A stretch of 64,000 nucleotides of DNA from Patescibacteria group bacterium (GTDB taxonomy: Bacteria > Patescibacteriota > Minisyncoccia > UBA6257 > 1-14-0-10-40-38), in NCBI GenBank assembly GCA_038064975.1, contig JBBTRX010000002.1:64880-128879 (forward strand), given 5' to 3'. The translations under genes were made by a program, and so were the position numbers. The notes beneath the pieces were generated by a model. It did not search any database. It saw only the letters and a program-made list of their open reading frames with translations, and had not been told where the DNA came from. Of the stretch, positions 5,255-59,726 are shown piece after piece. Every line of letters begins with the position of its first letter. The first letter of the stretch is position 1.

Positions 5255-5380
5255 TGTCGGGGTGCCGGGAGATCTCACGTCGTCCGGCAATGCCGGACTC
5301 CTTGAAACCCAGCGGTTTCAACAACTTCCGCATCGGGAAAACTCCCGATTTTTCCGACCCCTTTCCCGTTCGATTTTCCG
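5255..5380 (-). repeat. tRNA-3'-end-associated structured repeat, copy A (subtype 2), downstream of tRNA-Pro
   Basis: It begins (plus strand) with 19 nt identical to the tRNA-Pro 3' end plus trailer (ttctgtcggggtgccggga). The conserved core runs GATCTCACGTCG...CCGACCCCTTTCCCGTTCGATT, and the far end carries an inverted T-loop copy. It is about 90% identical to copies C and G. Confidence 0.8.
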
Positions 5381-5440
5381 AAAAGGATTTTTATTATCAT
5401 ATCACGCCGCACACTGGATTAATGGCGATTATCTGTTCTG

Positions 5441-5511
5441 TCGGGGTGCCGGGAATCGAACCCGGCCTTTACGCACCCGAAGCGTACGTACTGCCGATAT
5501 ACTACACCCCG
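5441..5511 (-). tRNA. tRNA-Pro (anticodon CGG)
   Basis: Cloverleaf with the C1:G72 and A73 identity elements typical of bacterial tRNA-Pro. Anticodon loop TTCGGGT, T-loop TTCGATT. Confidence 0.85.
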
Positions 5512-5599
5512 CCTTCACTAAAGTTACGGCGGGCAGGCCCGCTTTCGCCTTGGCATCCACTATAGATTACCCTTATAGCTATTGGCTAGTCCCTAGTGA

Positions 5600-7078
5600 T
5601 TACTTAACAAAATATTTCTTCTTGATCTCCTCATCGATGCGATGCTGCGCAGCGGATGCACTTTCTTTTGCCTTTCGTGCAAAATCCTCAAGCTCCTTAT
5701 CGGTCATCTTGCCCAATTCCTGAATTCTCTTTTCCAACACCTTTTTAGTATTGTATTTTGGATCTTCCAAAACTTCTTCCAAAAGCACCGCAAGAATTTT
5801 TCCAATCCGCGGTCCAGGAGACATCTTAAGGACGCGCATCACGTCTTCTCCATTCGCCTTCAACATCTTCGGGCTTACTGGATCTTTCTGTACTTTCTCA
5901 ATCATCGCGCGCAGATAGCGTAATCGATACGGTTGAGCCTTGGGCACACCGGATCCGATGCGATCCGCTTCGCGAAGTTTTAAAAGCGCATCTACATTGT
6001 CTTTACCAACACGCGCAATAAGCCGGCGTACACCCGCAAGAGTTACCGCTTCTGGATCGTATACAAACATATGCTCGCGCACTAAGAGAGCTACAGTCTC
6101 CGTAAGCGTTTTTGAGAAACGGAGGCGATCCATAATAGTTGCCGTCATCCGTTCGCCAACAACTTGATGTCCGTAAAAGGTAGAGTCCGGTCCATCCCCT
6201 TTTTTTGAACGCGGCTTTCCAACGTCATGAAAAAGTGACGCAAGGCGGATATGGAGCGGAAACCGTTCTGCTACCGCGTATTCCAATGATCGAAGATTAT
6301 GTTCAAAGACAGTATAGATATGATGCTTGTTTTGCGTTACGCTGATCCCCTCTTCAATTTCAGGAGCGATATGAATGAGAAGTTTGTGTGCGAGAAGCAT
6401 ACGCACACCCTCTGCAGCACGGTCGGTCAGCATGAGTTTTGTAAACTCATCGCGTATACGTTCCTTGGAAACATATGCCAAAAGCCCGCTCTGTTTTGTA
6501 ATCGCTTGTGCGGTCTTTTCTTCGATCGCAAATCCAAGCTGCGCACTAAACCGAATCGCCCGCAAAAGACGAAGAGCGTCTTCTTCAAATCGCTGCTCAG
6601 CCTTTCCTACGGCGCGAATAATTTTTTTCTTTAAATCTTCCTGTCCGTGATAAGGATCAACAATCAACTCTCTACTTGCATCGGTTATTTTTAATGCCAT
6701 CGCATTCACTGTAAAATCTCTGCGCGAGAGATCTTCTTCTATTGTAGAAGCGAAAGTTACCTCGTCTGGGTGACGCTTGTCACTATATTTCCCTTCAATA
6801 CGAAATGTCGTAACTTCAATTACTTTTAGTTTTGGATCTTCCGAATCCGTTTTTACTCCCACGGTGCCAAATTCATTTTCATATACTGAATCTGAGAATA
6901 ACTTTTGAATTTCTTCTGGCTTTGCATTCGTTGCGACGTCCCAGTCACTCGGACCTTCCGCAGGAGAATTCTCCATCATAATGTCCCGAACGCATCCGCC
7001 CACAAGATACGCATCAAAACCGCCCTCGTTTAAGCGTTCGGCGATCATTTTTACCTCTTTTGGGATGCGGCTTTTCAT
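5600..7078 (-). CDS. cca: CCA-adding tRNA nucleotidyltransferase with HD domain
   Basis: Pol-beta-like nucleotidyltransferase N-terminus (GGCVRD) plus a C-terminal HD domain (HDVGK). Confidence 0.8.
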   Translation of the reverse strand: MKSRIPKEVKMIAERLNEGGFDAYLVGGCVRDIMMENSPAEGPSDWDVATNAKPEEIQKLFSDSVYENEFGTVGVKTDSEDPKLKVIEVTTFRIEGKYSDKRHPDEVTFASTIEEDLSRRDFTVNAMALKITDASRELIVDPYHGQEDLKKKIIRAVGKAEQRFEEDALRLLRAIRFSAQLGFAIEEKTAQAITKQSGLLAYVSKERIRDEFTKLMLTDRAAEGVRMLLAHKLLIHIAPEIEEGISVTQNKHHIYTVFEHNLRSLEYAVAERFPLHIRLASLFHDVGKPRSKKGDGPDSTFYGHQVVGERMTATIMDRLRFSKTLTETVALLVREHMFVYDPEAVTLAGVRRLIARVGKDNVDALLKLREADRIGSGVPKAQPYRLRYLRAMIEKVQKDPVSPKMLKANGEDVMRVLKMSPGPRIGKILAVLLEEVLEDPKYNTKKVLEKRIQELGKMTDKELEDFARKAKESASAAQHRIDEEIKKKYFVK

Positions 7079-7194
7079 ATCTACGATAATACGGGAAAAT
7101 CAGAATTGACTCCAGAGCATAGAAAAAGCGCCCTCACAAAAGGGCGCTTTTTTTAGCCTTATTCCGCCGGCTTGCGAATTTACCTTTTACAAAA

Positions 7195-7674
7195 CTACTG
7201 ATTCTTAATCTCCAATTTTCTTGCTTTTGCCCGATTTCGTTTAGGAAGCTTTATTTTTAAAACTCCGTTTTTGATCGTTGCCTCTGCGCCTTCAGGATCA
7301 ACTTCTTCCGGCAAAGAAACTGAACGAGCGAACTTTCCCCAATAGCATTCATGGTAAACATAATCTTCGTGACGTACGTCATGCTCCCGCTCTCGCTTTC
7401 CTCGGATCGTAATCCCATCCGCAGTAATCACGACATCAATATCTTCAGGATCAACTCCGGCAATCGGCGACTCAACGATAACGTCTCCCCCTTTGTTATA
7501 TACATCAATCGTAAGCTGCCCCTCATCTTCACCGATATGCGGATCAGAAGTCACATCTATTTCCGTTTTTACTTTTGTTGCCGACGCGCGCGTAAGACCA
7601 ATATCAAAAGGCGCCGGAGGTATTTCGGAGCTCGCACGTAATTCTTCTAAAAATTTTCTTGTTTCGTCGCTCAT
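7195..7674 (-). CDS. Hsp20/alpha-crystallin family small heat-shock protein
   Basis: Alpha-crystallin domain with GVLKIKLPK near the C-terminus. Confidence 0.8.
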   Translation of the reverse strand: MSDETRKFLEELRASSEIPPAPFDIGLTRASATKVKTEIDVTSDPHIGEDEGQLTIDVYNKGGDVIVESPIAGVDPEDIDVVITADGITIRGKREREHDVRHEDYVYHECYWGKFARSVSLPEEVDPEGAEATIKNGVLKIKLPKRNRAKARKLEIKNQ

Positions 7675-8418: not shown

Positions 8419-11181
8419 TTACCACGCCTCCACCATTAAAAATGATTTCTGTTTTTCCCCAGCGAAGAGTTTTTGATATACCGCCTCCGTAACAAAAGGC
8501 ATAAAGGGATGGAGAAGTTTTATACATCCCAAGAAAATATCTTTTAGCATAGCAAGCGCCGCAGCTTTTTCCTGACTGTTTCCATTCTGGAGAGCAGGCT
8601 TTACTTGTTCAATAACAATGTCCGCAAACGTGTGCCATATATAGTGATAGCTTTCATTGGCCGCCTCGTGTAGTTCAAATGCCTCAATTTTCTCCGTAAC
8701 GAGTTTCTTAATATCGTTAAATCCGTCGTAATACGCTTGATATTCCTTCGGCATCTTTACTGACCGAGAAAGAGTTGGATCGTCATACATAGAAATAAAA
8801 CGTGCGATATTCCAAATCTTGGTCGCAAAGTTTCGATATCCGCGGATTTTGTCTTCAGAAAGTTTTATATCGTTTCCCGGCGCGGCACCCACAATAAGCG
8901 AAAGACGCGTCGCATCAGCTCCGTATTTATCCGCCATCTCTAATGGATCAATGCCATTTCCAAGTGATTTAGACATCTTTCTTCCCTTTTCATCACGCAC
9001 AAGCCCATGGAGATATACCGTCTTAAAGGGAACATCACCAATAAGAAATCCGGTCATAAGAATCATGCGCGCAATCCAGAAAAATAAAATATCGTATCCT
9101 GTTTCCAAAACACTTGTCGGATGAAATCCTTTTAAGTCTGCCGTTTTTTCGGGCCATCCGAGAGTTGAGAGCGTCCACAGCCCGGAAGAGAACCACGTGT
9201 CCAACGTGTCGGAGTCTTGGAGAAAAAGATGGTTACCGCATTTTTTACATTCCTCTAAAATATCGAATTGAATCGTTTCAGTGTTTTTTAGTGCAGATCC
9301 TGACAACGCCTGTTCTGGTGTCCAATTGTTAATCCTCTTCATAAGCATGCGGATTGTTCCGCCATGTGTCATGATGACAACGTTTTTGTGAGCATGCTTC
9401 TTTTTGTGACGCTCAAATGCCTCCACTACCCGATCTTCGAGTTGTTTATAGCTTTCGTCGTTTTCAATATTTATGTCATATCCAAACCTATCCTGATATT
9501 TCGCGATCATTTCTTCTTTTAGCATTCCCTCATATCCCCCATGATTTCTTTCGCGAAAACCTTTTTCATATATAATTTCTGCTCCGGTTACTTCGTGTAT
9601 TATTTCTGCAGTTTCTTTCGCGCGTTTAAGATCCGAACTTATAATGAGATCAATATTTTGATTTTTCAGCGCATGAGCCATTTCCCGCGCCTGTTCTCTT
9701 CCTTTTTCATTTAAGGAAGTATCCAGCCAGCCCTGTTGTCTTCCTTCTTTATTAAAATCAGTTTCTCCATGCCGAGCAAAAAACCATTTCCCCTTTCTTA
9801 GGGGGTTAATTTTTTCGTCTTTACAGCTAGTGCAGTACCACGCCGGAATCCGATGCCCATACCAAAGTTGGCGCGAGATGCACCAGTCGCGAAGATTTTC
9901 TATCCAATGGAAATAGGTCTTATCAAAATGTTCGGGAATGATTTTAATCTGCCCGCTCTTCACTACCTGAAGCATCATTTCTTTAAGCGTCACCATCTCC
10001 CCTTTCTTAATGCCTTGCAGCTTATCCGTTTTCGCTTCGAATTTTTTATTCACGTCCACAAACCACTGACGCATAATTTGCGGCTCAATAATTCCCCCAC
10101 CCCGTGTTGAAACAGTAACGCGATGCGCGTATTCCTCATCAACTTTCACGAGCAATTTTTTTTCTTTTAATTTCTCAACAATAGCAGGACGGGCTTTCGT
10201 GATATGCATTCCCGCAAATTCCCCGGCAATGGGGAGCAGTTTCCCTTTAAGATCAATAATTTGTTCTTTATCCAGGTTATGTCGTTCCGCGATTTCAAAA
10301 TCCATCGCATCGTGCCAGGGCGTAATCGTCATCACGCCAGTTCCGAATTCCGGATCAGCGGCCTCATCTTTAATAATCGTCGCCGTTATTCTTCCGTTGA
10401 TCCATTCAACTTCAAGTGTTTCGCCGTGTTTATATTTCGCATACCGTTCATCGTTCGGATGCATAACAACGTATTTATCTCCGAATTTCGTCTCCGGCCG
10501 GGCAGTACCGATAACAAAGGGGCCGTACTGTATATAATAGAAGACGCTTTTTTCATCCTTCCATTCCACCTCGTCATCAGAAACCGTGGTTTGCAGTTTC
10601 GGATCCCAATTCACGATTCTATCACCGCGATAGATGAGTCCGGCCTCGTGCATTTCTTTAAACGCAGTTTTGACCGCAAGACTTCGCGATTCATCAAGAG
10701 TAAACGCTTCGCGCGACCAATCTAAAGACGCTCCTAATCGTTTCATCTGATGCACGATAGTGTCATGACTTGCGCTCGCAAATTCTTCCACCTGTTTTAA
10801 AAATGTCTCGCGCCCCAGATCATGACGGGTTTTCTTTTCTTTTTTATAGAGCTCCTTCTCCACTTTTTCCTGCGTTGCAATTGCGGCATGGTCCGTACCA
10901 GGAATCCACAAGGTCTTAGCCCCACTCATACGCCGGTAACGGATAATAATGTCTTCTACCGCAATCATAGCTGCGTGTCCCATATGGAGCGTCCCCGTTA
11001 CGTTCGGCGGAGGAAGCACAATAGAGAAAGCTTCTTTATGCTTCCCCGGAAGTTTGTCCGGATTAAAAAAACCGGATTCTTCCCAGTTCCGATAAATAGC
11101 ATCTTCATGCGCTTTCGGGTCGTATGTTTTCTCGAATTCGGAATTCATATATATACTGCTTACTTTGTGTTCCTTCATCAT
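8419..11181 (-). CDS. valS: valine--tRNA ligase carrying an inserted histidine-phosphatase (PGAM-like) domain
   Basis: PPPNVTGTLHMGHA and KMSKSLGN motifs identify ValRS. About 190 aa are inserted between HRIPAWY and DTLDTWFSSGLW. The insert contains a split zinc knuckle (CTSC...CKKC), an RHGETDF motif and a later THGG motif. Confidence 0.9.
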   Translation of the reverse strand: MMKEHKVSSIYMNSEFEKTYDPKAHEDAIYRNWEESGFFNPDKLPGKHKEAFSIVLPPPNVTGTLHMGHAAMIAVEDIIIRYRRMSGAKTLWIPGTDHAAIATQEKVEKELYKKEKKTRHDLGRETFLKQVEEFASASHDTIVHQMKRLGASLDWSREAFTLDESRSLAVKTAFKEMHEAGLIYRGDRIVNWDPKLQTTVSDDEVEWKDEKSVFYYIQYGPFVIGTARPETKFGDKYVVMHPNDERYAKYKHGETLEVEWINGRITATIIKDEAADPEFGTGVMTITPWHDAMDFEIAERHNLDKEQIIDLKGKLLPIAGEFAGMHITKARPAIVEKLKEKKLLVKVDEEYAHRVTVSTRGGGIIEPQIMRQWFVDVNKKFEAKTDKLQGIKKGEMVTLKEMMLQVVKSGQIKIIPEHFDKTYFHWIENLRDWCISRQLWYGHRIPAWYCTSCKDEKINPLRKGKWFFARHGETDFNKEGRQQGWLDTSLNEKGREQAREMAHALKNQNIDLIISSDLKRAKETAEIIHEVTGAEIIYEKGFRERNHGGYEGMLKEEMIAKYQDRFGYDINIENDESYKQLEDRVVEAFERHKKKHAHKNVVIMTHGGTIRMLMKRINNWTPEQALSGSALKNTETIQFDILEECKKCGNHLFLQDSDTLDTWFSSGLWTLSTLGWPEKTADLKGFHPTSVLETGYDILFFWIARMILMTGFLIGDVPFKTVYLHGLVRDEKGRKMSKSLGNGIDPLEMADKYGADATRLSLIVGAAPGNDIKLSEDKIRGYRNFATKIWNIARFISMYDDPTLSRSVKMPKEYQAYYDGFNDIKKLVTEKIEAFELHEAANESYHYIWHTFADIVIEQVKPALQNGNSQEKAAALAMLKDIFLGCIKLLHPFMPFVTEAVYQKLFAGEKQKSFLMVEAW

Positions 11182-13951: not shown

Positions 13952-13976
13952 GATAAATTGTTTTGTTTTAAGAGTG

Positions 13977-14100
13977 TGCTCCCAAGGGGAGTCTCACGTC
14001 GCTTCACTCTTTAAAAACCGTCGGTTTTTAATATTTTCCTCCACGGGAGGAACCCGGCAGCTTTCCTCCCGACCCCTCCTTCGTTCGATTCTCTCTTGGG
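13977..14100 (-). repeat. tRNA-3'-end-associated structured repeat, copy B (subtype 1), downstream of tRNA-Glu
   Basis: It starts with a 14-nt copy of the tRNA-Glu 3' end (tgctcccaagggga). The subtype-1 core contains TTAAAAACCGTCGGTTTTTAA, CCTCCACGGGAGGA and CCTCCCGACCCCTCC. It ends in an inverted T-loop copy. Confidence 0.8.
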
Positions 14101-14170
14101 ATGATTTGCGTTCATATTATTATTCTAAACTGAAAACTCTTCAACTCATCAACGGTTCAACTGTGTTCGG

Positions 14171-14242
14171 TGCTCCCAAGGGGAATCGAACCCCTCTTTC
14201 AAGGATGAAAACCTTGTGTCCTGACCACTAGACGATGGGAGC
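14171..14242 (-). tRNA. tRNA-Glu (anticodon TTC)
   Basis: Sequence resembles E. coli tRNA-Glu (TCGTCTAG..GG.CAGGACAC). Anticodon loop TTTTCAT. Confidence 0.85.
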
Positions 14243-20590: not shown

Positions 20591-21070
20591 TTATTTTTTT
20601 CTTCCGCCTCTTCCCCTGTGACGGGGTGTCAAACTATGACAATTTGGACAAAGAACTCTAAGGTTCTCTAATCGATTATCCGTACGATCCCCATTGATAT
20701 GATCAAGCTCCAAAGGGAGATATCCATCTTGAGTTTTCTCTGCCCAATTGCATTGTTCGCAATATTCTGGCTTCAATTTAACACTAAAAAGACGTTTCTT
20801 CAATTTAAAGCTTTGAAATAAACTATTCTTAACTAAAATCTTTTCTAGAGGAATAATTGGCTTCCCAATTCCACGCAATCCTTTATTCCACGCCTTTCCG
20901 GTAAAATGACTTATATTTAAATTATATTCTTTAATATATCGTTTGATTTGAGCGTAATTTCCTCCCGCATCACGCAAATTTAGCTTAACTAAAATTTGCC
21001 GAAAGCTCTTTGAGCTTTTTACTGCATTCTTTAATTGAATAGCGGTCCAACCTCTTGTTCGTCCCGGCAT
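20591..21070 (-). CDS. HNH endonuclease (homing-endonuclease-like)
   Basis: LELDHINGDRTDNRLENLRVLCPNCH is an HNH motif with a zinc-binding Cys pair. The gene is wedged between tRNA-Cys and tRNA-Leu. Confidence 0.75.
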   Translation of the reverse strand: MPGRTRGWTAIQLKNAVKSSKSFRQILVKLNLRDAGGNYAQIKRYIKEYNLNISHFTGKAWNKGLRGIGKPIIPLEKILVKNSLFQSFKLKKRLFSVKLKPEYCEQCNWAEKTQDGYLPLELDHINGDRTDNRLENLRVLCPNCHSLTPRHRGRGGRKK

Positions 21071-23350: not shown

Positions 23351-23437
23351 GGAGGCGTGGCTGAGCGGTCTAAAGCAACACACTGCTAATGTGTTGGCCG
23401 GGAAACCGGCCCGAAGGTTCGAATCCTTCCGCCTCCG
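23351..23437 (+). tRNA. tRNA-Ser (anticodon GCT), class II
   Basis: Acceptor GGAGGCG/CGCCTCC, anticodon loop CTGCTAA and a long variable arm GGCCGGGAAACCGGCCC. Confidence 0.85.
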
Positions 23438-23448
23438 CAGTAGCAAAA

Positions 23449-23482: not shown

Positions 23483-23599
23483 GTGAAGTGAATGATTCGA
23501 ACCGCGGGCCGCAGACTCCGAAGAGGAGTCGAAGGTTTCGAGATCAGCAGACCGAGAGGCGAATCCAATTCCTTGATCAAAATTTAAAAATCCAATTCT

Positions 23600-25910: not shown

Positions 25911-26032
25911 TGAGCGGGGTAGAGAGTCTCACATCGTCCGGCTCTGCCGGACTCTTTGAAACCCAGCGGTTTCAACAGCTTCCGCATCGGGGAAACTACC
26001 GATTTCCCCGACCCCCTTCCCGTTCGATTCTC
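25911..26032 (-). repeat. tRNA-3'-end-associated structured repeat, copy C (subtype 2), distal tandem copy at tRNA-Gly
   Basis: It starts with tgagcggggtagaga (a tRNA-Gly 3'-end mimic) and its core is about 90% identical to A and G. Confidence 0.8.
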
Positions 26033-26085
26033 TTCTTACTCATTCCAAATAAAATGACTCACTATCACGGTGAGTCATTTTACGT

Positions 26086-26246
26086 TGAGCGGGGTACGAG
26101 AGTCTCACGTCGTCCGGCTCTGCCGAACTCCTTAAAACCCATCGGTTTTAACTCGCTCACTTCGTTCGCTTTTCCGCCTCGGAGAAACTTCCGTTTCCCC
26201 GACCCTGCCTACCGGTAGGCAGGCCCCTTCCTGTTCGATTCTCTCT
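26086..26246 (-). repeat. tRNA-3'-end-associated structured repeat, copy D (divergent subtype 2 with palindromic insert), proximal copy at tRNA-Gly
   Basis: It starts with tgagcggggtacgaga, which is 16/16 identical to the tRNA-Gly 3' end. It shares the core 5' part with subtype 2. It shows the compensatory hairpin change TTGAAACC/GGTTTCAA to TTAAAACC/GGTTTTAA. It carries an extra 20-nt perfect palindrome CCTGCCTACCGGTAGGCAGG. Confidence 0.75.
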
Positions 26247-26300
26247 TTACTCATTCATAACAAAAACAACCCATCGCAAGAATGGACTGTTTTTGTTATG

Positions 26301-26371
26301 AGCGGGGTACGAGAATCGAACTCGCGGCTCGACCTTGGCAAGGTCGCGTATTACCACTATACTAACCCCGC
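26301..26371 (-). tRNA. tRNA-Gly (anticodon GCC)
   Basis: Close match to E. coli tRNA-Gly(GCC) through the anticodon arm (CGACCTTGCCAAGGTCG), with U73. Confidence 0.85.
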
Positions 26372-26659: not shown

Positions 26660-27598
26660 TTAGCGTTGGTATGAGTGGTAGGTGTTGAGCAGTTTCTTTT
26701 CGGTCTGATTCAGTTCCAAGCCATTATCTTTGTAGAATTGGGCGATATAGAGGAAGAGACTCATCATCCCCTGGATTTTTGCCGACGAGACTTCGCCTTT
26801 TCTCATTGCCAGATTGAGAGCTCCCCGCACTCTCCGAAAATATGCGCGAGGGACGAAGATTCTACCATCTTCTGCAATCCCGATACCTGTTACGACAACA
26901 GGTCTTTTTGTAAGATCCACGCAATCAGATTTCCAGTGATTAATTATGAATCCGGCTTGGTCCGCAAGTATTCGTATCTTGCGACGCGTACTCGCCACAA
27001 TGGGATTTGGTGAAGAGAAGGTCAGGTCATCAATATAGCGCGTATACGTAATCCCAAATTCTTCACATAGATCACCAATATCTCCATCCAAGAGCGATCC
27101 CACCGAGAGATTGAAAAGATCTTGTGAGGCAGGACCGCCCGTGACCAATCCATGCTCCTTGTGAAAAAAATATTGAATGAGAAAAGCGACCAGCTCTTCT
27201 CTTTGCGACGCAAGCTTTTCATCAAGCGCAATCAACGTGTCGGCGACATGCGAGGGGAGAACGCTCCGATATGCATGGCGGAAATCAACAAGATAGAAAA
27301 ACCTATTCTCTCGATGTATGAGTGCATTATTGAGAGGAGATGATTTCGGCAATGCAGCAGTTGCATAGCGCAGAAATTGAGACCGTATCTGCTCATTGAC
27401 GTGCATAGGACTGCGCAAATGACCCAAAAATTCTCTTTGCAAATGAAGCATGCTGTTATTGGGCGCAAAAACGATACGACGCTTCGTGTGTCCGCTTAAA
27501 GGATTTTCATCGCGGATAGGAAACATCGTAAAACGAGGAGATTCCCCGTACTCGCGCTCCAATTGAGCCACGAGACTTTTCAGATTTTCAACGAGCAT
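26660..27598 (-). CDS. reverse transcriptase, retron-type (start trimmed to MLVENL; good SD AAGGAGG)
   Basis: RT motif 1/2 (FPIR..RRIVFAPNNSMLHLQ), motif A (LVDFRHAYRSV), motif B (LVTGGPASQDLFNL), motif C (YIDD), and a downstream VVVTGIGI that matches the retron-characteristic VTG motif. At 312 aa it has no maturase or endonuclease domain. Confidence 0.75.
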   Translation of the reverse strand: MLVENLKSLVAQLEREYGESPRFTMFPIRDENPLSGHTKRRIVFAPNNSMLHLQREFLGHLRSPMHVNEQIRSQFLRYATAALPKSSPLNNALIHRENRFFYLVDFRHAYRSVLPSHVADTLIALDEKLASQREELVAFLIQYFFHKEHGLVTGGPASQDLFNLSVGSLLDGDIGDLCEEFGITYTRYIDDLTFSSPNPIVASTRRKIRILADQAGFIINHWKSDCVDLTKRPVVVTGIGIAEDGRIFVPRAYFRRVRGALNLAMRKGEVSSAKIQGMMSLFLYIAQFYKDNGLELNQTEKKLLNTYHSYQR

Positions 27599-28039: not shown

Positions 28040-28075
28040 AAAAAGACCCGACGTTCAAAAACGTCGGGATAGTGG
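28040..28075 (-). terminator. rho-independent terminator (minus strand)
   Basis: Hairpin CCCGACGTTtttgAACGTCGGG followed on the minus strand by TCTTTTTTATATA. Confidence 0.5.
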
Positions 28076-28281
28076 CGTACCCGTCATGGTGGGAGAAATC
28101 ACGGAGCTCTACGACGGGAGCGAGCGATGAATTGGCGTCATCGCTGGTTGCAACACCTGCGACCTTGTCGCCTTGCGCTCTCCTCCTCCATACCATGACG
28201 AGTACGTGTGGAGTGTAATCAAATCATCGTCATTCCGCAAGTTATGCGAACTGGTCGATTCCTCTCTCGTAAAACACAAAA

Positions 28282-28319
28282 AAGAAAAACCGCCCATAGA
28301 GGACGGCCTTTTCTTTTTG
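28282..28319 (-). terminator. terminator immediately after tRNA-Arg(GCG)
   Basis: On the minus strand: hairpin CCGTCCtctatGGGCGG followed by TTTTTCTTTTTT. Confidence 0.5.
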
Positions 28320-28391
28320 TGCGCTCGAGAGGAATCGAACCTCTATTACGGGATCCGCAATCCCGTGTCCTATCCGTTGAACGACGAGCGC
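28320..28391 (-). tRNA. tRNA-Arg (anticodon GCG)
   Basis: Perfect acceptor GCGCTCG/CGAGCGC with A73, anticodon stem CGGGA/TCCCG, loop TTGCGGA and T-loop TTCGATT. The GCG anticodon is unusual for bacterial tRNA-Arg, so the call is uncertain. It could be a variant or a pseudogene. Confidence 0.65.
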
Positions 28392-40290: not shown

Positions 40291-43200
40291 CTATTTTGCT
40301 CGGCGGATACCGACAACGATCGTTTCCTGATCAAGTTTTGTTTCTTGTTTTGCATCAAATGGCCGAGTCTCCATCCATGAGGCAGCGGCAAAATCCATTT
40401 CCTTCGCGCCAACCATACGAAGAAGCGTATCTTTATTCTTTTCAATCTGCTCCTGTAGTAATACAGACGCGGCAATCGTGATCATTACCGTATCTTTAAT
40501 GTCATATCCGGCATCTTGGCGAAGTTTTTGAATCATACGAGAAAGTTCGCGCATGAGCCCCTCGGCGCGCAATTCCGGAGTAATCGTGGCGTCCAATACA
40601 GTGTCCGCCCCTTGATCCTTTGAAAATACAATGTGCTTAACATTCACTTCGTCAGCTAAAATCGCGAGCAAAGCAGAATCTTTCACGGAAAGGATTTTTG
40701 TAACAATAGAGAGAGTGGAGAGCGGCTGGCGGATTTTTATTCCCAACTTTTCCCGTTCTGCGAGTGCAAGGTTCGCAAGGCGGCGCACTTCTTCCATGGC
40801 TTGGATCATTTTTTTATCGCTCACGCTCATAGTAATTTTTGGCCACAGAGCGATATGTACAGAATGCGATCCGGTCTTCTCCTTCTTCGTCGCGACAGCT
40901 TGGTATAGTCCTTCGCTGAAAAACGGAGCGAAAGGCGCCATATATTTTGAGAGCGTTACTAGAACAGTCTGAAGTGTTTTTGGCGAAACATTTTTTCGGC
41001 TCCTGCGAATATACCAGCGAGAAAGATCGTCGAGAAAAGTCTCCAGCGCCTTTGCTGCCGAATATACGTCGTATACATCCAGCTTCTTTGAAACCGTAAG
41101 TCCTACTTCGTTCAGACGGGCAAGAATCCACTGATCAAGTGCGGGAAGCGGATTGTGCTTTTCATGCTCGTACATTTTAGAAAACGCGAATGAGTTGTAC
41201 GTAATCAAGAAAACTTTACGGAACACCGTCTTCAAATCATCTTCGTTAAACCGCTTTGGCTCTCCTGGATCATTTAACGTAAAGAAATACCAGCGCACTG
41301 CATCAACGCCATGCGTCCCAATAAGCTGCCATGGATCAATAACATTGCCTTTGGATTTAGACATCTTCGCCCCATGCTTATCCAAAATATGCCCCAGAGA
41401 GATTACATTCTTGTATGGTTCTTTTTTGCCGAGAAGCGTTGAAACGGCAAGGAGGGTATAGAACCAACCGCGCGTCTGATCAACCGCTTCAGTAATATAA
41501 TCCGCCGGGAACTGTTTTTTACCATCCACCATCCCTTTGTGTTCAAACGGATAATGCCATGACGCAAAAGGCATTGCTCCGGAATCAAACCATACGTCCG
41601 CGACGTCAGGAATGCGTCTCATAGTTTTCCCGCAATCAGGACACTGTAATACTATTTCATCAATAAATGGCCGATGAGGGTCAATGGTCCCCGTCTCGTT
41701 ATAGGGAAGGTTCATAACTGTACGACTGATCCATTTTCCAGGCAGGATATACTCCGCTTCTTTAATCTCTGCCGTAAGGTTCATGCCATCCAAAATTGCA
41801 CTCAAAACCCATAAAGGATCGCCGTGGCTCACAACCGCGATACGCTTGCCAGCGTACTGTGCACGGACATCTTTCATAAAACTCGTAACACGCCGGGCAA
41901 GATCAATGAGCGTTTCCCCTCCTTCGGGCGTTTTCGTGAACCGTTCCTCAAAGCTATTAAAGAATGCATGGTAATCATCTACGGGAGCCCGATTAAAAAC
42001 TCCGACATTAATTTCCCGTATGCGCTCGTCGTACACAATTTCCGCTCCCGTTGCTTCACTTACAATTTCCGCCGTTTCTTTAGCACGAGCGAAAGGCGAT
42101 GAGATAATAAGATCAATCTTTTTCTTTTTTAAATCTGCACCAGCTTTCTTTGCTTGTGTTTTCCCTTTAGCCGTAAGGAGCGAAGGACGCTCGTCATCCC
42201 CTGCCATTTGATTCTTCGTATTATGTTCCGCCTCGCCGTGGCGGATCAAGAAAAATTCCGCTTGAGGAAGCGCATGTTTTTCTAAGTCTTCAAACGATCC
42301 CGCAACAAACGTATGTACACATATCTCGCCCTTCCAAATTGGAAGCGGCGTTCCCCAATACCGGTTGCGGGATATTGCCCAATCTTTCAGTTCCTTTAAC
42401 CACTCACCAAACCTTCCCTCGCGCACATGGCTTGGGATCCAATTCACGCGAGCATTCTCTGCAATAAGCTGACTCTTCAATTCACTCATGCGGATGAACC
42501 ATGAATTCCGTGCGTAATAGATAAGAGCAGTCCCGCATCTCCAGCAATGCGGATACTCGTGGGTATACTGTTCGGTTTTTAAGAGCAGATTTTTTGACTG
42601 CAGATATTCAATAATTGTCGTTTCCGTCAATTTTGCTTTTACAAAACGTCCCGCAAGATCTTTTACTTCGTCAGTGAACTTTCCTTCCTCCGTTACGGTA
42701 TGTTTCTGTGGCAAGCCAATTTTGACGCCAAGTTCATAATCGTCTTCTCCGTACATGACTGCGGTATGCACAACACCCGTGCCATCTTCAGTTGTTACAA
42801 AATCAGCCGCATATACGCGGTGCGATTTCTCACTCCGGAGCGATGGAATATCAAAAAGCGGCTCGTATTCCAATTCTATTAAGTCTTTTCCCTTCACGGT
42901 TACAACAACCTCTCCCAATACCTCTTTAAGTGAGGAGTCGTGAGCAACTACAGCATATTCTCCGTTTTGGGAGCGCACGACATAGGAGATATTTTTCCCT
43001 ACCGCGAGAGCGACGTTGCCCGGCAAAGTCCACGGCGTTGTAGTCCACGAGAGAATATAGGTATTGTCTGTTGTTTTCCAATTCCCTATTTTTTGGCCCG
43101 GCTTTAATTTGAACTTTACATAGACTGACGTATCAGTCACTTCCTTGTATCCTTGGGCAAGCTCGTGAGAAGAGAGCGCGGTTCCGCATCGCGTGCACCA

Positions 43201-43734
43201 CGGAATAATCTTATGCCCTTCGTAGAGTAGTTTTTTCTTCCAGACTTCTTTAAATATCCAAAATAAAGATTCAATATATGATGAATCCGAGGTTACATAC
43301 GCGTTCTCCCTATCCAACCAAAATCCAATGCGTTCGGTAAAGTTTTCCCACTCCGTGCGATATCTCCAAACGGAAGCGCGCGCTTTTTCATTAAACTGCG
43401 CGATGCCATACCGTTCTATATCCTGTTTGTTCCGAAGTCCCAGTTCTTTTTCCACTTCAATTTCAACCGGAAGCCCATGAGTGTCCCATCCTGCTCTCCG
43501 TAAAATAGAATGCCCGCGCATCGTTTTGTAGCGCAAAATAATATCCTTAAACGCACGGACAAGAATATGATGCGTGCCGGGACGGCCATTTGCAGTCGGA
43601 GGGCCTTCAAAAAAACGGAATGGCTTCCCCCGCTTTCGTGCAGCGGTCGTTTTTGGAAAGATTTGATTTTCTTTCCAGAATTTCAGAACTTGCTCCTCAA
43701 GTTCCGGTAAATTGAATTTATCTTTTTCAAGCAT
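40291..43734 (-). CDS. ileS: isoleucine--tRNA ligase carrying an inserted histidine-phosphatase (PGAM-like) domain
   Basis: PTANGRPGTHH and KMSKSKGN motifs identify IleRS. About 230 aa are inserted between WGTPLPIW and DVWFDSG. The insert contains RHGEAEHN, IDLIISSPFARAKETAE, SHGD, and a CPDC zinc knuckle. Confidence 0.9.
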   Translation of the reverse strand: MLEKDKFNLPELEEQVLKFWKENQIFPKTTAARKRGKPFRFFEGPPTANGRPGTHHILVRAFKDIILRYKTMRGHSILRRAGWDTHGLPVEIEVEKELGLRNKQDIERYGIAQFNEKARASVWRYRTEWENFTERIGFWLDRENAYVTSDSSYIESLFWIFKEVWKKKLLYEGHKIIPWCTRCGTALSSHELAQGYKEVTDTSVYVKFKLKPGQKIGNWKTTDNTYILSWTTTPWTLPGNVALAVGKNISYVVRSQNGEYAVVAHDSSLKEVLGEVVVTVKGKDLIELEYEPLFDIPSLRSEKSHRVYAADFVTTEDGTGVVHTAVMYGEDDYELGVKIGLPQKHTVTEEGKFTDEVKDLAGRFVKAKLTETTIIEYLQSKNLLLKTEQYTHEYPHCWRCGTALIYYARNSWFIRMSELKSQLIAENARVNWIPSHVREGRFGEWLKELKDWAISRNRYWGTPLPIWKGEICVHTFVAGSFEDLEKHALPQAEFFLIRHGEAEHNTKNQMAGDDERPSLLTAKGKTQAKKAGADLKKKKIDLIISSPFARAKETAEIVSEATGAEIVYDERIREINVGVFNRAPVDDYHAFFNSFEERFTKTPEGGETLIDLARRVTSFMKDVRAQYAGKRIAVVSHGDPLWVLSAILDGMNLTAEIKEAEYILPGKWISRTVMNLPYNETGTIDPHRPFIDEIVLQCPDCGKTMRRIPDVADVWFDSGAMPFASWHYPFEHKGMVDGKKQFPADYITEAVDQTRGWFYTLLAVSTLLGKKEPYKNVISLGHILDKHGAKMSKSKGNVIDPWQLIGTHGVDAVRWYFFTLNDPGEPKRFNEDDLKTVFRKVFLITYNSFAFSKMYEHEKHNPLPALDQWILARLNEVGLTVSKKLDVYDVYSAAKALETFLDDLSRWYIRRSRKNVSPKTLQTVLVTLSKYMAPFAPFFSEGLYQAVATKKEKTGSHSVHIALWPKITMSVSDKKMIQAMEEVRRLANLALAEREKLGIKIRQPLSTLSIVTKILSVKDSALLAILADEVNVKHIVFSKDQGADTVLDATITPELRAEGLMRELSRMIQKLRQDAGYDIKDTVMITIAASVLLQEQIEKNKDTLLRMVGAKEMDFAAASWMETRPFDAKQETKLDQETIVVGIRRAK

Positions 43735-46746: not shown

Positions 46747-47088
46747 GGGGATGCCGGGCTTCGATAAGGCATATTCTCTACAGATGGCATGCCGAGCCGC
46801 AATATCTCGTTAACCTGTTGCAAACTATAACTGCAAACCACAAAGTTGCAGCACCAGCATTTGCCTTTGCGTAAGTGCGTGGTGTCCCCTTCCATTAATG
46901 GAAGGGCATCGGTCCTGACGCTTCATAGGGATTAACCGGTGTTATATCTGATGCTCAAGATGCGCGAAGATTAGGATTCGTCGGCACGCATTCGAAAACC
47001 AAATGAATTCTTTGTTTCTTTTGAAACTAAGCATGTAGAAGTTTGTTCTGAACATCCTTAGATGTGGGTTCAACTCCCACCATCTCCA
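46747..47088 (+). ncRNA. ssrA: transfer-messenger RNA (tmRNA, ssrA)
   Basis: 5' GGGGATG pairs with 3' CATCTCC and includes a G3:U pair. There is a tRNA-like T-arm (GTGGGTTCAACTCCCAC). An internal tag ORF, with resume codon GCA, encodes ANHKVAAPAFAFA followed by a stop. The gene lies next to smpB. Confidence 0.8.
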
Positions 47089-47098
47089 CAAATAAAAA

Positions 47099-47130
47099 TA
47101 GCTCGCCGTTATGGCGAGTTGTTTTTATTT
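47099..47130 (+). terminator. rho-independent terminator after tmRNA
   Basis: CTCGCCgttatGGCGAG followed by TTGTTTTTATTT. Confidence 0.6.
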
Positions 47131-47276
47131 CATGGTGGGAGTTGAACTGAAAGGAGGGGTCGGGAGGAGAGGTATTCCTCCCGTGGAGGAAAAAATCCAG
47201 CAACGCTGGATGAGTTAAAAACCGACGGTTTTTAAAAGGAGTGAAACGACGCGTGAAATTCCCACCATCTCCACCA
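47131..47276 (+). repeat. tRNA-3'-end-associated structured repeat, copy E (subtype 1), downstream of tmRNA
   Basis: The 5' end catggtgggagttgaac is the antisense of the tmRNA T-arm. The 3' end ttcccaccatctccacca mimics the tmRNA 3' end. The subtype-1 core motifs are present, with a variable hairpin TCCAGCgttGCTGGA. Confidence 0.8.
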
Positions 47277-53094: not shown

Positions 53095-54867
53095 TTAAGC
53101 CCGATTTTTCAGTAATTTCAACATTTGATCAACTGGATACGTATTAATAATACCCCCCTTTGTCACCCAACCTCTCCTTGCCTGTGAGATACCAAATTCA
53201 AGTACAGAAAAATGGCTTACGCTATGTGCGTCGGAATCAATAGACATTTTTACACCCGCTTTCACACATTTTCTGATATGATCGTCTTTCAAATCTAACC
53301 GATCAGGAAATGCATCTATCTCTAAAATAGTCCCCGTCTTTTTCGCTACCGCAATAATCTCTTCCATATCTATAGGATACGCCGGTCGCTTCCCTATCCT
53401 ACGCCCCGTCGGATGAAATAAAATATCGGCATGCGGATTATGCATTGCTTTTACTACACGCGCTGTCTGCTCTTCAATCGGAAGATTGAAATAGGAATGC
53501 ACGGAGATACCAACGACATCCAACTTCGCGAGCACGTCGTCCGAAATATCCAGCGATCCGTCTTTTAAAATATCACATTCGGAACCCGCAAGAATTCTGA
53601 ATTTCTTTTTTTCTTTCTGCAAATCCCCGTTAATTTTTCTAATCTCTTCAATTTGCTCTAAAATCTTTTTCTCATCCAATCCCCCCGTCATCGCAAGGCG
53701 TTTGGTATGGTCAGTAATCACGATGTATTCAAGTCCTGCTTTCATTGCGGCATCCGCCATCGCGCGGATAGAATCCGCCCCGTCCGTCCAATTAGTCTGG
53801 GTTTGCAAATCCCCTTTCAAATCGCCGTAATCAATAAGCTTCGGAAGCTTCTTTTCTTCGGCAAGTTCAACTTCACCCGCGTCTTCACGCATTTCCGGAG
53901 GAATGTATTCCAATCCAAGTGCTGAATAAATTTCTTCTTCAGTTTTCCCCGCTACCAACTTCCATTCATTGTCGTTAGTTGTTAGTTTTTTGTTGTTAGT
54001 TTTCTTATAGAGCCCATATTCATTAAGCTTCATACCCTTACTGATGGCGATTTTTCTCAAATGCACATTATGATCTTTTGATCCTGTAAAGTAATTTAAA
54101 GCCGCACCGTAGGACTCCGGTGGCACTACGCGGAGATCAGCATCAATGCCGGCTTTGAGCCGAACCATCGATTTCGTGGGTCCTTTGGCATAGACGCGCG
54201 CCACTTCCGGCATTGCAGTAAACGCATCCATCACGGTCTCTGCGTTCTTCGCGACAACAAGAATATCAATATCTCCTACAGTTTCTTTGCGCCTACGAAT
54301 TGAACCTGCAACCGCGAAATGTTCAACCGCTTTCACTTTACGTAATCGCTCTTCAATGCTTCGCACTTCGGGCACGATATTCCCCAAGAGCATTCTTCCG
54401 CCTGATGCACGCACGAATTCAATCCCTTTCAAAATATTCTCTTCACTCTTTTTTCCAAATCCTTCCAAAACTCCAATCGTTCCGGCTTTTGCAGCTTTTT
54501 CTAAATCATCCAGATTTTTAATCTTGAGCTTCTCGTACAACCGTTTTATTTTTTTCGGGCCCAACCCTTCAACTTTTGTAAGTGTCGCAAGATCAACAGG
54601 CGTTTCGAGTTTTAACTGTTCGTAATACGCGAGCTTTCCAGTTTTTATAAGTTCTTCAACATGATCAGCAATAGATGCCCCAACACCAGGAATGGTTAAA
54701 ATCGCGGCTCGTCCGCCTCTTTTGTAGAGACCAGAAATTTCTTCATCAAGCGCAAGCACGCTTTCGGCTACCTTCTCATATGCGCGTGGCTTAAACGGAA
54801 TATCCTCCATCGCTAAATATTCGGCAATGTTGGTCAATATTTCTGCGATTTCCTTATTGGTAAGCAT
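53095..54867 (-). CDS. polX: DNA polymerase X family protein with PHP domain
   Basis: Pol-beta-like HhH and palm N-terminus, and a C-terminal PHP (His-rich) domain. Confidence 0.8.
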   Translation of the reverse strand: MLTNKEIAEILTNIAEYLAMEDIPFKPRAYEKVAESVLALDEEISGLYKRGGRAAILTIPGVGASIADHVEELIKTGKLAYYEQLKLETPVDLATLTKVEGLGPKKIKRLYEKLKIKNLDDLEKAAKAGTIGVLEGFGKKSEENILKGIEFVRASGGRMLLGNIVPEVRSIEERLRKVKAVEHFAVAGSIRRRKETVGDIDILVVAKNAETVMDAFTAMPEVARVYAKGPTKSMVRLKAGIDADLRVVPPESYGAALNYFTGSKDHNVHLRKIAISKGMKLNEYGLYKKTNNKKLTTNDNEWKLVAGKTEEEIYSALGLEYIPPEMREDAGEVELAEEKKLPKLIDYGDLKGDLQTQTNWTDGADSIRAMADAAMKAGLEYIVITDHTKRLAMTGGLDEKKILEQIEEIRKINGDLQKEKKKFRILAGSECDILKDGSLDISDDVLAKLDVVGISVHSYFNLPIEEQTARVVKAMHNPHADILFHPTGRRIGKRPAYPIDMEEIIAVAKKTGTILEIDAFPDRLDLKDDHIRKCVKAGVKMSIDSDAHSVSHFSVLEFGISQARRGWVTKGGIINTYPVDQMLKLLKNRA

Positions 54868-58234: not shown

Positions 58235-58604
58235 GCGACATATATCATGGCAACGGTAAGTGCTATTCCCGCATAGAGAAGTCCTGCCAAAGCAACGCGG
58301 AAACTTCTAAATACAATGCCCAGTGTGTGGCCGATGGGCGTATGGTCCTGATACAAAGGCTGGAAAAAATTTCGCAACGTTACGCGAAGCGCCAACTTTT
58401 TATCAAGCAAAGTAAGCACCTCAGTTGTATATGTAAGAAGCGCAAAAAAAGAATCGTAATACCAATGCCGCACAAAAGCTTTGATGCGACTTATAACTTG
58501 TTCCCCGATATAGAGAGCGGACTCGTATCCCATATCTCCATTATAGAGTCGTTTTTTAAAGAATGCGAAAAAAATCCCGCACACGACCTGTGATGTGCGG
58601 GTTT

Positions 58605-59252
58605 TCAGTGCACGTGATGGGTATGCCCGTGACTGTCGGAAGACGAATATTTGAGAAGATGTATCGCTCCCCATACCATCCAAAACGCAATAGCAATGGA
58701 AACGACGGGGTCAAAGAGCGTGATACCCGTAATCCAAATCACGGGAGCAGTCACAATAACCACAATGCTCTGCAGAAAATCAAAACGAATATGTTGTCGC
58801 ATGCCTTCGCGAGTTGCATGGGCACTGCTTTGCATAAGAATGCGATGTTGAATCATATTTCCACACGCTCCCACCACGGCAACAGACAACATTATGAAGG
58901 GAGCAACGTGAGGCGTGCCGTGCATTCTATGCACTGCCTCCAGAAAAACAACCACTGCAATAACGAAGAGAAGTGCGCTATGTGCATACACGCCCAGTTT
59001 TCTCATGAATCCTTCCCAATGGGAATGTAGATACACGAGATACGCGATAACAATCGCAACGATGATCGCGATGAAGTCACCAAAAACGTGACCCGCATCC
59101 GATAAAAGAGCCAAGCTTCCCGAAGCAATGCCACCCGCGATTTGAAAGACGAGAATAGCAAGCGTTACCGAGAAGATAATCCAATATCGTTTGAAATCGC
59201 AGAGACAATTCCCTATCTCTATCCTACAAGTTCTGAAATGCCCGCTTCGCAC
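58605..59252 (-). CDS. cation diffusion facilitator family transporter (TM domain only, His-rich tail)
   Basis: CDF TM signature (SLALLSDAGHVFGD, HxxxD) and a C-terminal SHGHTHHVH. There is no cytoplasmic C-terminal domain. Confidence 0.7.
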   Translation of the reverse strand: MRSGHFRTCRIEIGNCLCDFKRYWIIFSVTLAILVFQIAGGIASGSLALLSDAGHVFGDFIAIIVAIVIAYLVYLHSHWEGFMRKLGVYAHSALLFVIAVVVFLEAVHRMHGTPHVAPFIMLSVAVVGACGNMIQHRILMQSSAHATREGMRQHIRFDFLQSIVVIVTAPVIWITGITLFDPVVSIAIAFWMVWGAIHLLKYSSSDSHGHTHHVH

Positions 59253-59416
59253 GGAGCACCCCCTTTCTTTTTGTTTAGAAGACTGTGAAAGAGCATATCT
59301 GAAACCAGAGTCACCCTATGCCAAAATGACTACGACGTCAATCATCGAGGCGATAGAAATTTTTGATATGAAAAATCCACGGCAGAAAAATGAGGATATT
59401 TTTTTATTTTACGGAG

Positions 59417-59552
59417 TGCTCCCGGCAGGAGATCTCACGCGTCGCTTTGCTCATGCTTAAAAACCGTCGGTTTTTAACATTCCGCCTTTCGGCGGATTTT
59501 CCTACACGGGAGGAGTACCTCTCCTCCCGACCCCTCCTCTCAGTTCGATTTC
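59417..59552 (-). repeat. tRNA-3'-end-associated structured repeat, copy F (subtype 1), distal tandem copy at tRNA-Arg(CCG)
   Basis: It starts gtgctcccggcagga, a tRNA-Arg 3'-end mimic. The subtype-1 core is present, with a variable hairpin CCGCCtttcGGCGG. Confidence 0.8.
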
Positions 59553-59603
59553 TAACGGGAGAAAGTATAAAAATAAATAACCCCGATGGGGTCATTTATT
59601 TTT

Positions 59604-59726
59604 GTGCTCCCGGCAGGAGGTCTCACGTCGTCCGGCTCTGCCGGACTCTTTGAAACCCAGCGGTTTCAACAGCTTCCGCCTCGGGGAAACTTCCGTTTCC
59701 CCGACCCCTTTCCCGTTCGACTCCTG
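59604..59726 (-). repeat. tRNA-3'-end-associated structured repeat, copy G (subtype 2), proximal copy at tRNA-Arg(CCG)
   Basis: It starts gtgctcccggcagga. The core is about 90% identical to A and C. It folds into a closing stem GCAGGAG/CTCCTGC with three internal hairpins. Confidence 0.8.

Follow-up and report, generated by a model that had tools for sequence, protein, structure and literature searches.

Two kinds of described mobile DNA are among the systems closest to the elements analyzed here. Integrative elements that target tRNA genes, the cis-mobilizable elements (CIMEs) derived from them by loss of the integrase, and casposons (found at tRNA and EF-2 gene ends) insert into the 3' part of a tRNA gene, restore it through a direct repeat that starts in the region of the T-loop, accrete in tandem, and occasionally occupy the ends of protein genes. 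MITEs (miniature inverted-repeat transposable elements), REPINs, and Correia-type repeats are small, multicopy, noncoding, and hairpin-forming, lie outside genes, and depend on a factor acting in trans. In a 64,000-nt stretch of a Patescibacteria group bacterium genome (contig JBBTRX010000002.1, positions 64,880 to 128,879; the whole of this stretch is hereafter the window), seven copies of an element sharing these traits were found past the ends of tRNA and transfer-messenger RNA (tmRNA) genes. Each carries an inverted copy of its host gene's end, a folded core, and a direct copy of the same gene end. Relatives of the core occur throughout Patescibacteria, and we tentatively read the element, a little short of calling this probable, as a nonautonomous mobile module whose termini are copied from the target, by a mechanism that we infer. 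Members of Patescibacteria, i.e., of the Candidate Phyla Radiation (CPR), have tiny genomes thought to be poor in mobile elements, and little is understood of their RNAs; the family is conserved throughout Saccharibacteria and in many lineages of Parcubacteria, and the RNA-family catalogue does not contain it.

The resemblance to either kind is partial. Unlike CIMEs and casposons, the units described here measure 150 to 250 nt in total, are noncoding, and place one core family at dozens of targets; they always include the inverted target copy, their repeats vary in length from 10 to 113 nt, and neither an integrase nor a casposase is linked to them. The direct repeat of the gene end and the restored gene are both present as in integrative elements and CIMEs, but no cognate tyrosine or serine recombinase was found in the window and none recurs at the at least 118 loci described below, and in place of a single attachment (att) specificity there are 8 to 11 targets for near-identical cores. 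Unlike in MITEs and REPINs, the terminal inverted repeat is copied from each target instead of being family sequence, the duplication is long and variable (10 to 113 nt exact, versus a fixed 2 to 9 bp), the conserved internal multihelix fold tolerates permutation, and the sites are conserved gene ends. Neither family-wide terminal repeats nor a fixed short duplication was found; the termini match at least 28 anticodons, tmRNA, and protein genes.

Other systems share parts of the architecture. Non-long-terminal-repeat (non-LTR) retrotransposons and short interspersed nuclear elements (SINEs), including R2 and tRNA-gene-associated types, have nonautonomous forms, produce variable duplications, combine a specific first cut with a loose second one, and undergo template jumping. 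These features of target-primed reverse transcription are the basis of the mechanism proposed below, but the present elements are bacterial, have no known reverse transcriptase (RT) partner and no poly(A) or 3'-tail homology, and carry as a constant feature the inverted target copy that is an occasional by-product there. Small self-cleaving ribozymes and riboswitch aptamers are similar as folds (a compact core, covarying helices, invariant junction nucleotides, optional hairpins, a closing helix of free sequence, and natural circular permutation); unlike these, the elements match no Rfam ribozyme or riboswitch and have the copy number and genomic pattern of a repeat family. Nor do they behave as T-box or riboswitch leaders, there being no Rfam match, no relationship among downstream genes, and in many copies nothing or a tRNA following. 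The msr-msd region of retrons is likewise structured, noncoding, and closed by terminal inverted repeats, and a retron-type RT is encoded in the window; in contrast to retrons, the elements are multicopy, their inverted repeats are host derived, and no RT is linked to them across the at least 118 loci.

Rfam 15 at gathering thresholds returned only tRNA and tmRNA over the whole window. With the limit relaxed to an E value of ≤10, for four of the window copies (C, D, F, and G) and a permuted relative (L049; L numbers designate loci in other genomes), the best match was the ylbH leader at 14 to 22 bits, versus a cutoff of 50. Identity with that leader was rejected, the weak alignments covering only a terminator, a purine run, and a hairpin. 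The proposal in the initial annotation that the elements lie outside described RNA families thus stands, as no Rfam family was matched at either setting. Full-text literature searches yielded no description of these elements, and a paper on Patescibacteria tRNA introns, which deals with group I introns at position 35/36, does not mention them. We regard the family as real, widespread, and categorically new in architecture; the known kinds each fail at least one defining feature.

In the window, tRNA and tmRNA genes were called with ARAGORN and Rfam (11 tRNA genes and 1 tmRNA gene), and the element sites were read directly on the gene strand. All seven copies (A to G; Table 1) consist, in this order, of a spacer (S), an arm, the shared core, and X2, where the arm is the inverted copy of the gene end, X2 the direct copy, and X1 the original within the gene. 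The spacer sets the element 40 to 70 nt downstream of tRNA-Pro, tRNA-Glu, tRNA-Gly, tRNA-Arg(CCG), or tmRNA, and in 5 of 7 units it is a good bidirectional terminator-like palindrome. The arm consists of the local T-loop and T-stem 3' strand in reverse complement, plus a variable length of the acceptor 3' strand; X2 exactly repeats 14 to 19 nt at the 3' end of the local tRNA, starting at T60 and ending 1 to 5 nt past the discriminator. Direct reading of the seven sites therefore bears out the three-part layout with gene-derived termini that had been proposed. Element E carries the reverse complement of the unusual tmRNA T-loop AGTTGAAC (TTCAACT), from which it follows that the termini are truly local. 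A MAFFT alignment of the window copies (A1) agrees with the earlier description of a common core in two subtypes.

That seven real copies are present was confirmed with a covariance model (R1) built from 102 relatives, with 5 window copies in the seed and elements E and F outside it. Run with filters off, R1 gives exactly seven full-length matches in the window, each on the right strand, at 55 to 74 bits (E values of 1e-12 to 3e-17), and the next best match scores 15 bits; chance is no realistic explanation. The copies are not degenerate tRNA pseudogenes either, in line with the earlier interpretation: ARAGORN and the Rfam tRNA model call none of them, and only their termini are tRNA derived. 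Pseudogenes and chance were accordingly excluded as explanations, the same core also being found with protein-gene termini.

Two earlier statements on position needed revision. All copies do lie on the strand of their gene, as claimed, but only five follow a tRNA or tmRNA gene directly; C and F are second units of tandem arrays (tRNA-S-arm-core-X-S-arm-core-X) and lie 51 to 53 nt past the tRNA-end copy of the preceding element. The junction had been placed always at the T-loop/T-stem boundary. Ahead of X2, the sequence GTGAGAY/GTGAAAT forms a pseudo-T-loop (T54, GA replacing T55 C56, then R57 A58), which pairs with the arm in a helix with a tandem G.A/A.G mismatch. Across genomes, its R57 agrees with the host T-loop (A in 6/6 A-hosts and G in 12/13 G-hosts), which places the start of the host-derived part, on both sides, at about G53/T54 instead. 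In D, E, and G, a decayed continuation of the arm runs through the reverse complement of acceptor strand and trailer and reaches the right-hand half of S, so that gene end, spacer, and arm make up one long imperfect palindrome; the arm of C is decayed in the same pattern as that of D. The genes downstream of the window elements are unrelated (HD hydrolase, GGDEF, and CDF transporter).

Table 1. Positions and parts of the seven elements in the window, with R1 matches
Element	Position	Strand	Place	Hairpin ahead	Arm	Core	X2	R1 score (bits)	R1 match	Remarks
A	5252..5384	-	downstream of tRNA-Pro(CGG) 5440-5511		5368-5384	5271-5367	5252-5270 (19 nt, identical to 5436-5454, tRNA end plus trailer)	59.7	5298-5372	next gene ATG 7 nt past X2
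B	13976..14100	-	downstream of tRNA-Glu(TTC) 14169-14242		14083-14100	13991-14082	13976-13990 (15 nt, identical to 14170-14184)	74.2	14007-14087	
C	25911..26046	-	second unit of Gly array	S2, 26047-26085	26022-26046	25926-26021	25911-25925 (one-base deletion versus tRNA)	64.2	25952-26026	
D	26086..26258	-	first unit after tRNA-Gly(GCC) 26300-26371	S1, 26259-26298 (terminator-like)	26233-26258 (including decayed extension)	26102-26232	26086-26101 (16 nt, identical to 26299-26314)	55.7	26128-26217	two additional hairpins in core
E	47132..47274	+	downstream of tmRNA 46747-47091	S, 47090-47131 (bidirectional terminator-like)	47132-47147	47148-47259	47260-47274 (identical to 47075-47089)	62.3	47145-47239	outside model seed
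F	59416..59562	-	second unit of Arg array	59569-59603 (16-bp palindromic)	59543-59562	59431-59542	59416-59430	61.6	59453-59545	outside model seed; subtype 1
G	59604..59733	-	first unit after tRNA-Arg(CCG) 59783-59857	S, 59734-59784	59715-59733	59619-59714	59604-59618 (identical to 59785-59799)	72.8	59646-59719	subtype 2

A degenerate core pattern, scanned over one genome per species for 185,579 species, recovered at least 118 loci. Among the matches listed, the named loci belong to Patescibacteria (Saccharibacteria, many Parcubacteria/Paceibacterota lineages, Minisyncoccia, and Moraniibacteriota) with two exceptions, namely a weak, probably chance match in a Burkholderiales metagenome-assembled genome (MAG) and a strong match in a MAG labeled Gammaproteobacteria. 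The same pattern had no match in 2.9 million viral contigs (IMG/VR). Within these loci, R1 detected 16 further copies outside the pattern selection, i.e., about 20 extra copies per Mb over ~0.7 Mb of flank, from which we estimate tens of copies per genome.

Host genes were read in the matches listed, to which the following counts refer. The same arm and X2 are found in 61 of 119 pattern-defined elements at a position 24 to 200 nt downstream of a same-strand tRNA, with at least 28 different anticodons targeted, each at the T-loop; many copies are followed by no gene or by another tRNA. The remaining elements show the same architecture at other hosts. In three genomes (L012, L040, and L092), the same protein gene has an element at its 3' end, an element sits at the C-terminal 78 nt of an open reading frame (ORF) in L004, and antisense elements lie at the 5' ends of translational GTPase genes in L029, L069, and L078 (in L078 by position and orientation only). 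Of the elements as a whole, about 70% are located at tRNA 3' ends. Where the direct repeat is clean (80 elements), the host site is the 3' end of a tRNA or tmRNA gene in 58, of a sense ORF in 13, and the 5' end of an antisense ORF in 5, with 4 being unclear, and the intact gene is always on the arm side. With the same core, arm, and direct copy at protein-gene ends, the family is not tRNA specific, and the idea that it is anchored to tRNA and tmRNA genes as such had to be abandoned; a processed noncoding RNA (ncRNA) with a tRNA-like 3' tail, another early suggestion, does not fit such hosts. What is observed is a Patescibacteria-wide family of small folded noncoding modules at conserved gene ends. 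Two individual loci are of further interest here: L069 holds an EF-G-like gene with elements at both ends (1170-1260 and 3450-3650), one antisense at the 5' end and one sense just past the stop codon, and in L051 (5005 onward) a tandem element array runs into an assembly gap (a run of N).

In general form, the sites read gene...X1-(S)-arm-core-X2-flank, with arm and X2 sharing a start point, J, which lies in the T-loop of tRNA and tmRNA genes, in the G1-motif codons of translational GTPase genes (in L029 and L069 directly past the AH(I/V)D codons), and in the last codons of some protein genes. Across the family, the arm measures 10 to 30 nt and X2 from 14 to >110 nt. An exact direct repeat of at least 10 nt is present in 89 of 121 elements, typically of 10 to 25 nt and at most ~113 nt, this maximum being the duplicated segment of L069, which covers the start codon and upstream sequence. 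Exact repeats always begin where the arm ends; in 21 of 77 cases, diverged similarity continues past the exact repeat, at times through S.

The core itself, ~90 to 130 nt long, is closed by a helix of host sequence (arm/X2) and comprises a helix, P1, a hairpin, P2 (..AACCG-NN-GGKTT..), and purine-rich joining strands, (R)nGGGGYCGG and CCG-NNNN-GGAR, together with optional additional hairpins and, usually, a 3' GCGAC(G). RNAalifold on 102 cores recovers the two helices P1 and P2, in which 94% of cells are paired and 225 cells show double changes, versus ~80 in column shuffles; no shuffle of 500 reached this count, and slid-register controls were far lower. Some "invariant" columns of the corresponding alignment (A2) are imposed by the search pattern, yet unselected copies still conserve them, the 16 pattern-independent copies retaining GGGGYCGG, CCG-NNNN-GGAR, and AACCG-NN-GGKTT. 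When whole elements are folded, arm and X2 form a closing helix that encloses a junction of three or four helices; Z-scores go down to -5.8, those of window elements B and E being weaker (-1.4 and -2.5).

Two members, L049 (after tRNA-Arg) and L060 (after tRNA-Ser), are circularly permuted, with the P1 3' strand right after the arm and GGGGGUCGG plus the P1 5' strand right before X2. In this order the host helix extends P1 rather than closing a multiloop, and the minimal conserved unit is thereby reduced to P1 and P2 joined by two purine-rich strands. Such permutation points either to a defined three-dimensional fold or to a circular intermediate that opens at varying positions; along with the conserved junctions, it could also hint indirectly at a self-cleaving ribozyme.

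The gene-sense strand is the folded one, judging from the asymmetry of two motifs and from arm mismatches: the GCGAAGC mini-hairpin was counted 43 times in sense orientation versus once in antisense (~30 times background), CGAAG 71 times versus 7 times, and mismatches between arm and X1 are of the G.T type in 27 cases and of the A.C type in 10. A strand call from G-U versus A-C pairs within P1 had too few cases. C(GAA)G triloops are exceptionally stable in DNA. The frequent use of these triloops, the terminator ahead of the element, and the lack of a promoter lean toward single-stranded DNA as the folded molecule, while GNRA-like P1 loops and the permutation lean toward RNA. No sigma-70-like promoter was seen ahead of the window elements, a consensus from which CPR promoters may differ.

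These features of the core are those of a typical functional RNA fold (conserved core, covarying helices, invariant junction nucleotides, optional hairpins, tolerated permutation), and a closing helix that is free in sequence is also known from riboswitch aptamers. They would suit a cis-acting RNA module of the cell, a structured domain within the 3' region of genes with high expression, acting as a switch, as a processing or insulation signal, or as a mimic of the acceptor/T-arm minihelix, in which the arm would pair alternately with X1 or with a decoy, X2. Several details agree with this, i.e., X2 remains identical to the gene end also in copies with a decayed arm, the arm and R57 of the pseudo-T-loop covary, G.U-type mismatches are favored on the sense strand, and in many tRNA cases arm and X2 are predicted to restore an acceptor/T-stem helix of 12 bp whose 3' tail is free. 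We nonetheless consider such a role unlikely. An estimated tens of copies per genome lie at unrelated genes and are patchy among relatives (the empty site in L122, described below), different subtypes stand in tandem at one tRNA, and some insertions fall inside coding sequence and are rescued by the duplication. At GTPase 5' ends the module is antisense to its host gene, so that the arm cannot pair with the host mRNA, and each element is preceded by a terminator-like hairpin, with no sigma-70-like promoter seen. If the module were cellular after all, it would constitute a novel structured RNA linked to genes for tRNAs and translation factors.

The combination of cores with targets bears on what is transmitted. 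Cores at least 88% identical (single linkage) and from different species sit at 11 different targets in one case and at 8 in another, and conversely one window tRNA, tRNA-Arg(CCG), carries both core subtypes, in G and F. As subtypes and targets are freely combined and the termini are always local, the core would be the transmitted unit, with arm and repeat made from the target, which is the most economical reading. Target use follows sequence similarity (the universal T-loop, the GTPase G1 motif), as is typical of elements homing into conserved sequence. A mobile hairpin element, one of the possibilities raised in the initial annotation, thus remains the best reading, with the same reserve as above.

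One event would have to produce the direct and the inverted target copy together, at no stage leaving an essential gene broken. In the mechanism we envisage, a strand break would occur at J, and the broken 3' end would prime copying of the folded single-stranded core. Synthesis would then return along the priming strand by fold-back or template switching, because the fold holds both ends of the core together, and would thereby yield the inverted arm. A second, loosely placed break on the other strand would give rise to the variable direct repeat. The survivors would be those insertions whose repeat passes the gene end and leaves the gene working. Presumably the core is bound by a factor that acts in trans and is CPR encoded, or else it is catalytic itself. 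Homologous recombination into the same gene could then carry the module from lineage to lineage, since conserved gene sequence flanks it on both sides, the whole gene to the left and X2 to the right; this would explain why exact X1/X2 identity often ends with the conserved gene, while S and the distal flank are unrelated (L004 and the window copies). It is conceivable, if doubtful, that the family represents a new class of CPR mobile element in which a folded RNA or single-stranded DNA core, possibly catalytic, writes itself into conserved gene ends in one step with a direct and an inverted target copy, the duplicated segment serving as a homology arm for horizontal spread. If mobile, the architecture parasitizes essential single-copy genes without killing the host, through gene-preserving duplication and a target-derived hairpin, and points to an unknown copying or recombination activity.

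Several points weigh against a target-copied mobile module. No movement was observed and no pair of near-identical genomes differing by one element was found, the empty site coming from a relative with only 69% protein identity and a different downstream gene; neither a partner enzyme nor the RT or polymerase required for fold-back was found. The model gives no explanation for S, which is often a good terminator-like palindrome and is absent after X2, and it leaves unexplained the systematic TC-to-GA change in the pseudo-T-loop on the X2 side, while the identity of X2 with the gene end despite diverged flanks would have to be attributed to recombination spread. Strong conservation of the core over whole CPR classes would also suit a cellular function. 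Recent transposition, which the likeness of cores A, C, and G in the window might suggest, was rejected: the same subtype occurs in other species, and similarity within the window is therefore no evidence for it.

What was added to the genome can be read from an orthologous empty site. In L122, a Harrisonbacteria MAG, the gene for a CCA enzyme (69% identical) is followed by tRNA-Pro(CGG), 4 nt, and the ATG of the next gene, without hairpin, arm, or core; in the window, an ATG similarly follows the X2 of element A, at a distance of 7 nt. An S-like hairpin is also absent after the five element-free tRNAs of the window, and together these sites suggest that the added DNA is S, arm, core, and one copy of X. 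The alternative in which S is the native tRNA terminator and only arm, core, and X2 were inserted is disfavored by L122, by the hairpin-free window tRNAs, and by the tandem arrays, although in L045, L095, and L032 the copy past the core is also trailed by a related hairpin, which speaks for a native S. In the recent-looking L069, L023, and L050, S is nearly absent and X1 abuts the arm. The element-side gene end of L004 differs from the native end beyond a 54-nt identical stretch.

An added unit of this composition could also be a miniature integrative element of CIME type, in which X-S-arm-core would be excised as a circle and integrated site specifically in a gene-end copy by a recombinase supplied in trans, the element providing a replacement gene end and a terminator. 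The direct repeat from T-loop to tRNA 3' end resembles integrase att sites, the insertion leaves the gene whole, a terminator comes with the unit, accretion is in tandem, the empty site lacks S, and the gene end of L004, diverging past its 54-nt identity, looks like a foreign replacement end. This reading is nevertheless quite unlikely. Near-identical cores occur at at least 28 tRNA species and several protein genes, for which a sequence-specific recombinase would need equally many specificities; gene-end copy and inverted copy would have to be swapped together at every change of target; the arm and the permuted members are left unexplained; and no integrase was found near the elements at the at least 118 loci or in the window.

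Similarly, the core could be pictured as the scaffold of a guide RNA for a nuclease or recombinase encoded elsewhere, with the guide in X2 (as in TnpB omega-RNA) or in the 5' arm (as in IscB/Cas9). A scaffold of ~100 nt followed by a 14- to 20-nt segment identical to a nearby target has this form, and the presence of one sense and one antisense segment loosely recalls two-strand recognition by the IS110 bridge RNA. Stand-alone guide loci are known for obligate mobile element-guided activity (OMEGA) systems. The guide, however, would match an intact gene of its own genome and so be self-targeting, the direct copy can exceed 100 nt, and arm and X2 cover the same target segment instead of adjacent ones; no common target-adjacent motif lies upstream of J in hosts among the matches listed, and there is no Rfam match to known scaffold families. 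No TnpB, IscB, Cas, or IS110-type gene is present in the window or recurs at the at least 118 loci, and we regard a guide function as highly improbable.

Clustering of all ORFs at the at least 118 loci revealed no transposase, integrase, or RT that recurs near the elements; neighbors are housekeeping genes, as are the window genes otherwise. Nuclease-like recurrences among the matches listed were limited to a small GIY-YIG protein (6 loci) and YraN (6 loci), too few to count. The window does encode a retron-type RT (26660-27598, minus strand; ~312 amino acids from the likely true start at 27598), directly upstream of tRNA-Gly and elements D and C, which is assigned to RT_II-A by PADLOC (3.8e-25) and to retron_St85 by NCBIfam (1.2e-25, below cutoff). 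The elements might then be msr/msd-like templates for this enzyme, the terminal inverted repeat that closes the structured region corresponding to a1/a2, and a relation to an RT had been raised before. A tblastn search with the window RT was, in contrast, blank at the at least 118 element loci, and its family is rare (~28 homologues in 5.8 billion proteins) and looks CPR restricted, whereas the elements are widespread. The homologues examined occur as stand-alone genes, have upstream a conserved ncRNA of their own (~350 nt), and adjoin no element or tRNA. A retron origin is scarcely credible and, as RT and elements do not co-occur, is refuted as a general explanation; the window RT was likewise rejected as a partner of the elements, belonging to a separate family with its own ncRNA.

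Around the RT gene, the upstream side holds a site resembling a promoter and, at ~28010-27650, an RNA of ~340 nt that terminates in a terminator hairpin-type signal, the loci of RT homologues share the motif TTCGCTAC..ACGTAGCGGA..GAATCC, and downstream (~26549-26385) a 54-codon candidate ORF with a hydrophobic N terminus was read by eye. Two other window genes are of note. A family X DNA polymerase with a PHP domain (53095-54867, minus strand) is mentioned solely because the proposed insertion would call for a gap-filling or template-switching polymerase, and a 159-amino-acid ORF with an HNH_3 endonuclease domain (20591-21070, minus strand) lies between tRNA-Cys and tRNA-Leu(TAA), both of which are element free.

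In practical terms, the elements seem to break short-read CPR assemblies; they give rise to false partial tRNA hits and mark tRNA 3' ends in CPR annotation.

Some tRNA genes are followed by sequence that resembles part of an element. In L125 (4093-4120), the 3' end of tRNA-Pro(CGG) is repeated in decayed form directly behind the gene (ATTCCCAGCAGCCCTACA), with no core, which may be the footprint of a lost element or a chance match. In the window, an antisense T-loop/T-stem copy of tRNA-Arg(GCG) (28319-28391) lies past a terminator hairpin (28254..28270, minus strand) and has no R1 match; this arm-only site (28040-28270) continues with ~190 nt of hairpin-rich sequence and then a terminator, with no family core and no clear sense copy, and may be a remnant, a divergent relative, or a second, unrelated core type. 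Past the terminator of tRNA-Ser(GCT) (23351-23438), the stretch 23490..23545 (plus strand) consists of an antisense copy of the variable loop and T-arm (23490-23512), a small hairpin, and a partial sense copy (CGAAGGTTTCGAGATC), again with no family core or R1 match; it is possibly a remnant.

L052 (5520-6230) presents a second kind of tRNA-gene insertion with the gene preserved by duplication: two identical 311-nt units, each made up of the 5' part of tRNA-Lys(CTT) with an altered anticodon stem and an ORF for an 84-amino-acid GIY-YIG nuclease, are followed by an intact tRNA-Lys and, further downstream, by an element of the present family. Finally, two class I aminoacyl-tRNA synthetase genes of the window (Ile/Val/Leu type; 8419-11181 and 40291-43734, minus strand) have a histidine-phosphatase (His_Phos_1) domain inserted in the middle of the catalytic domain.

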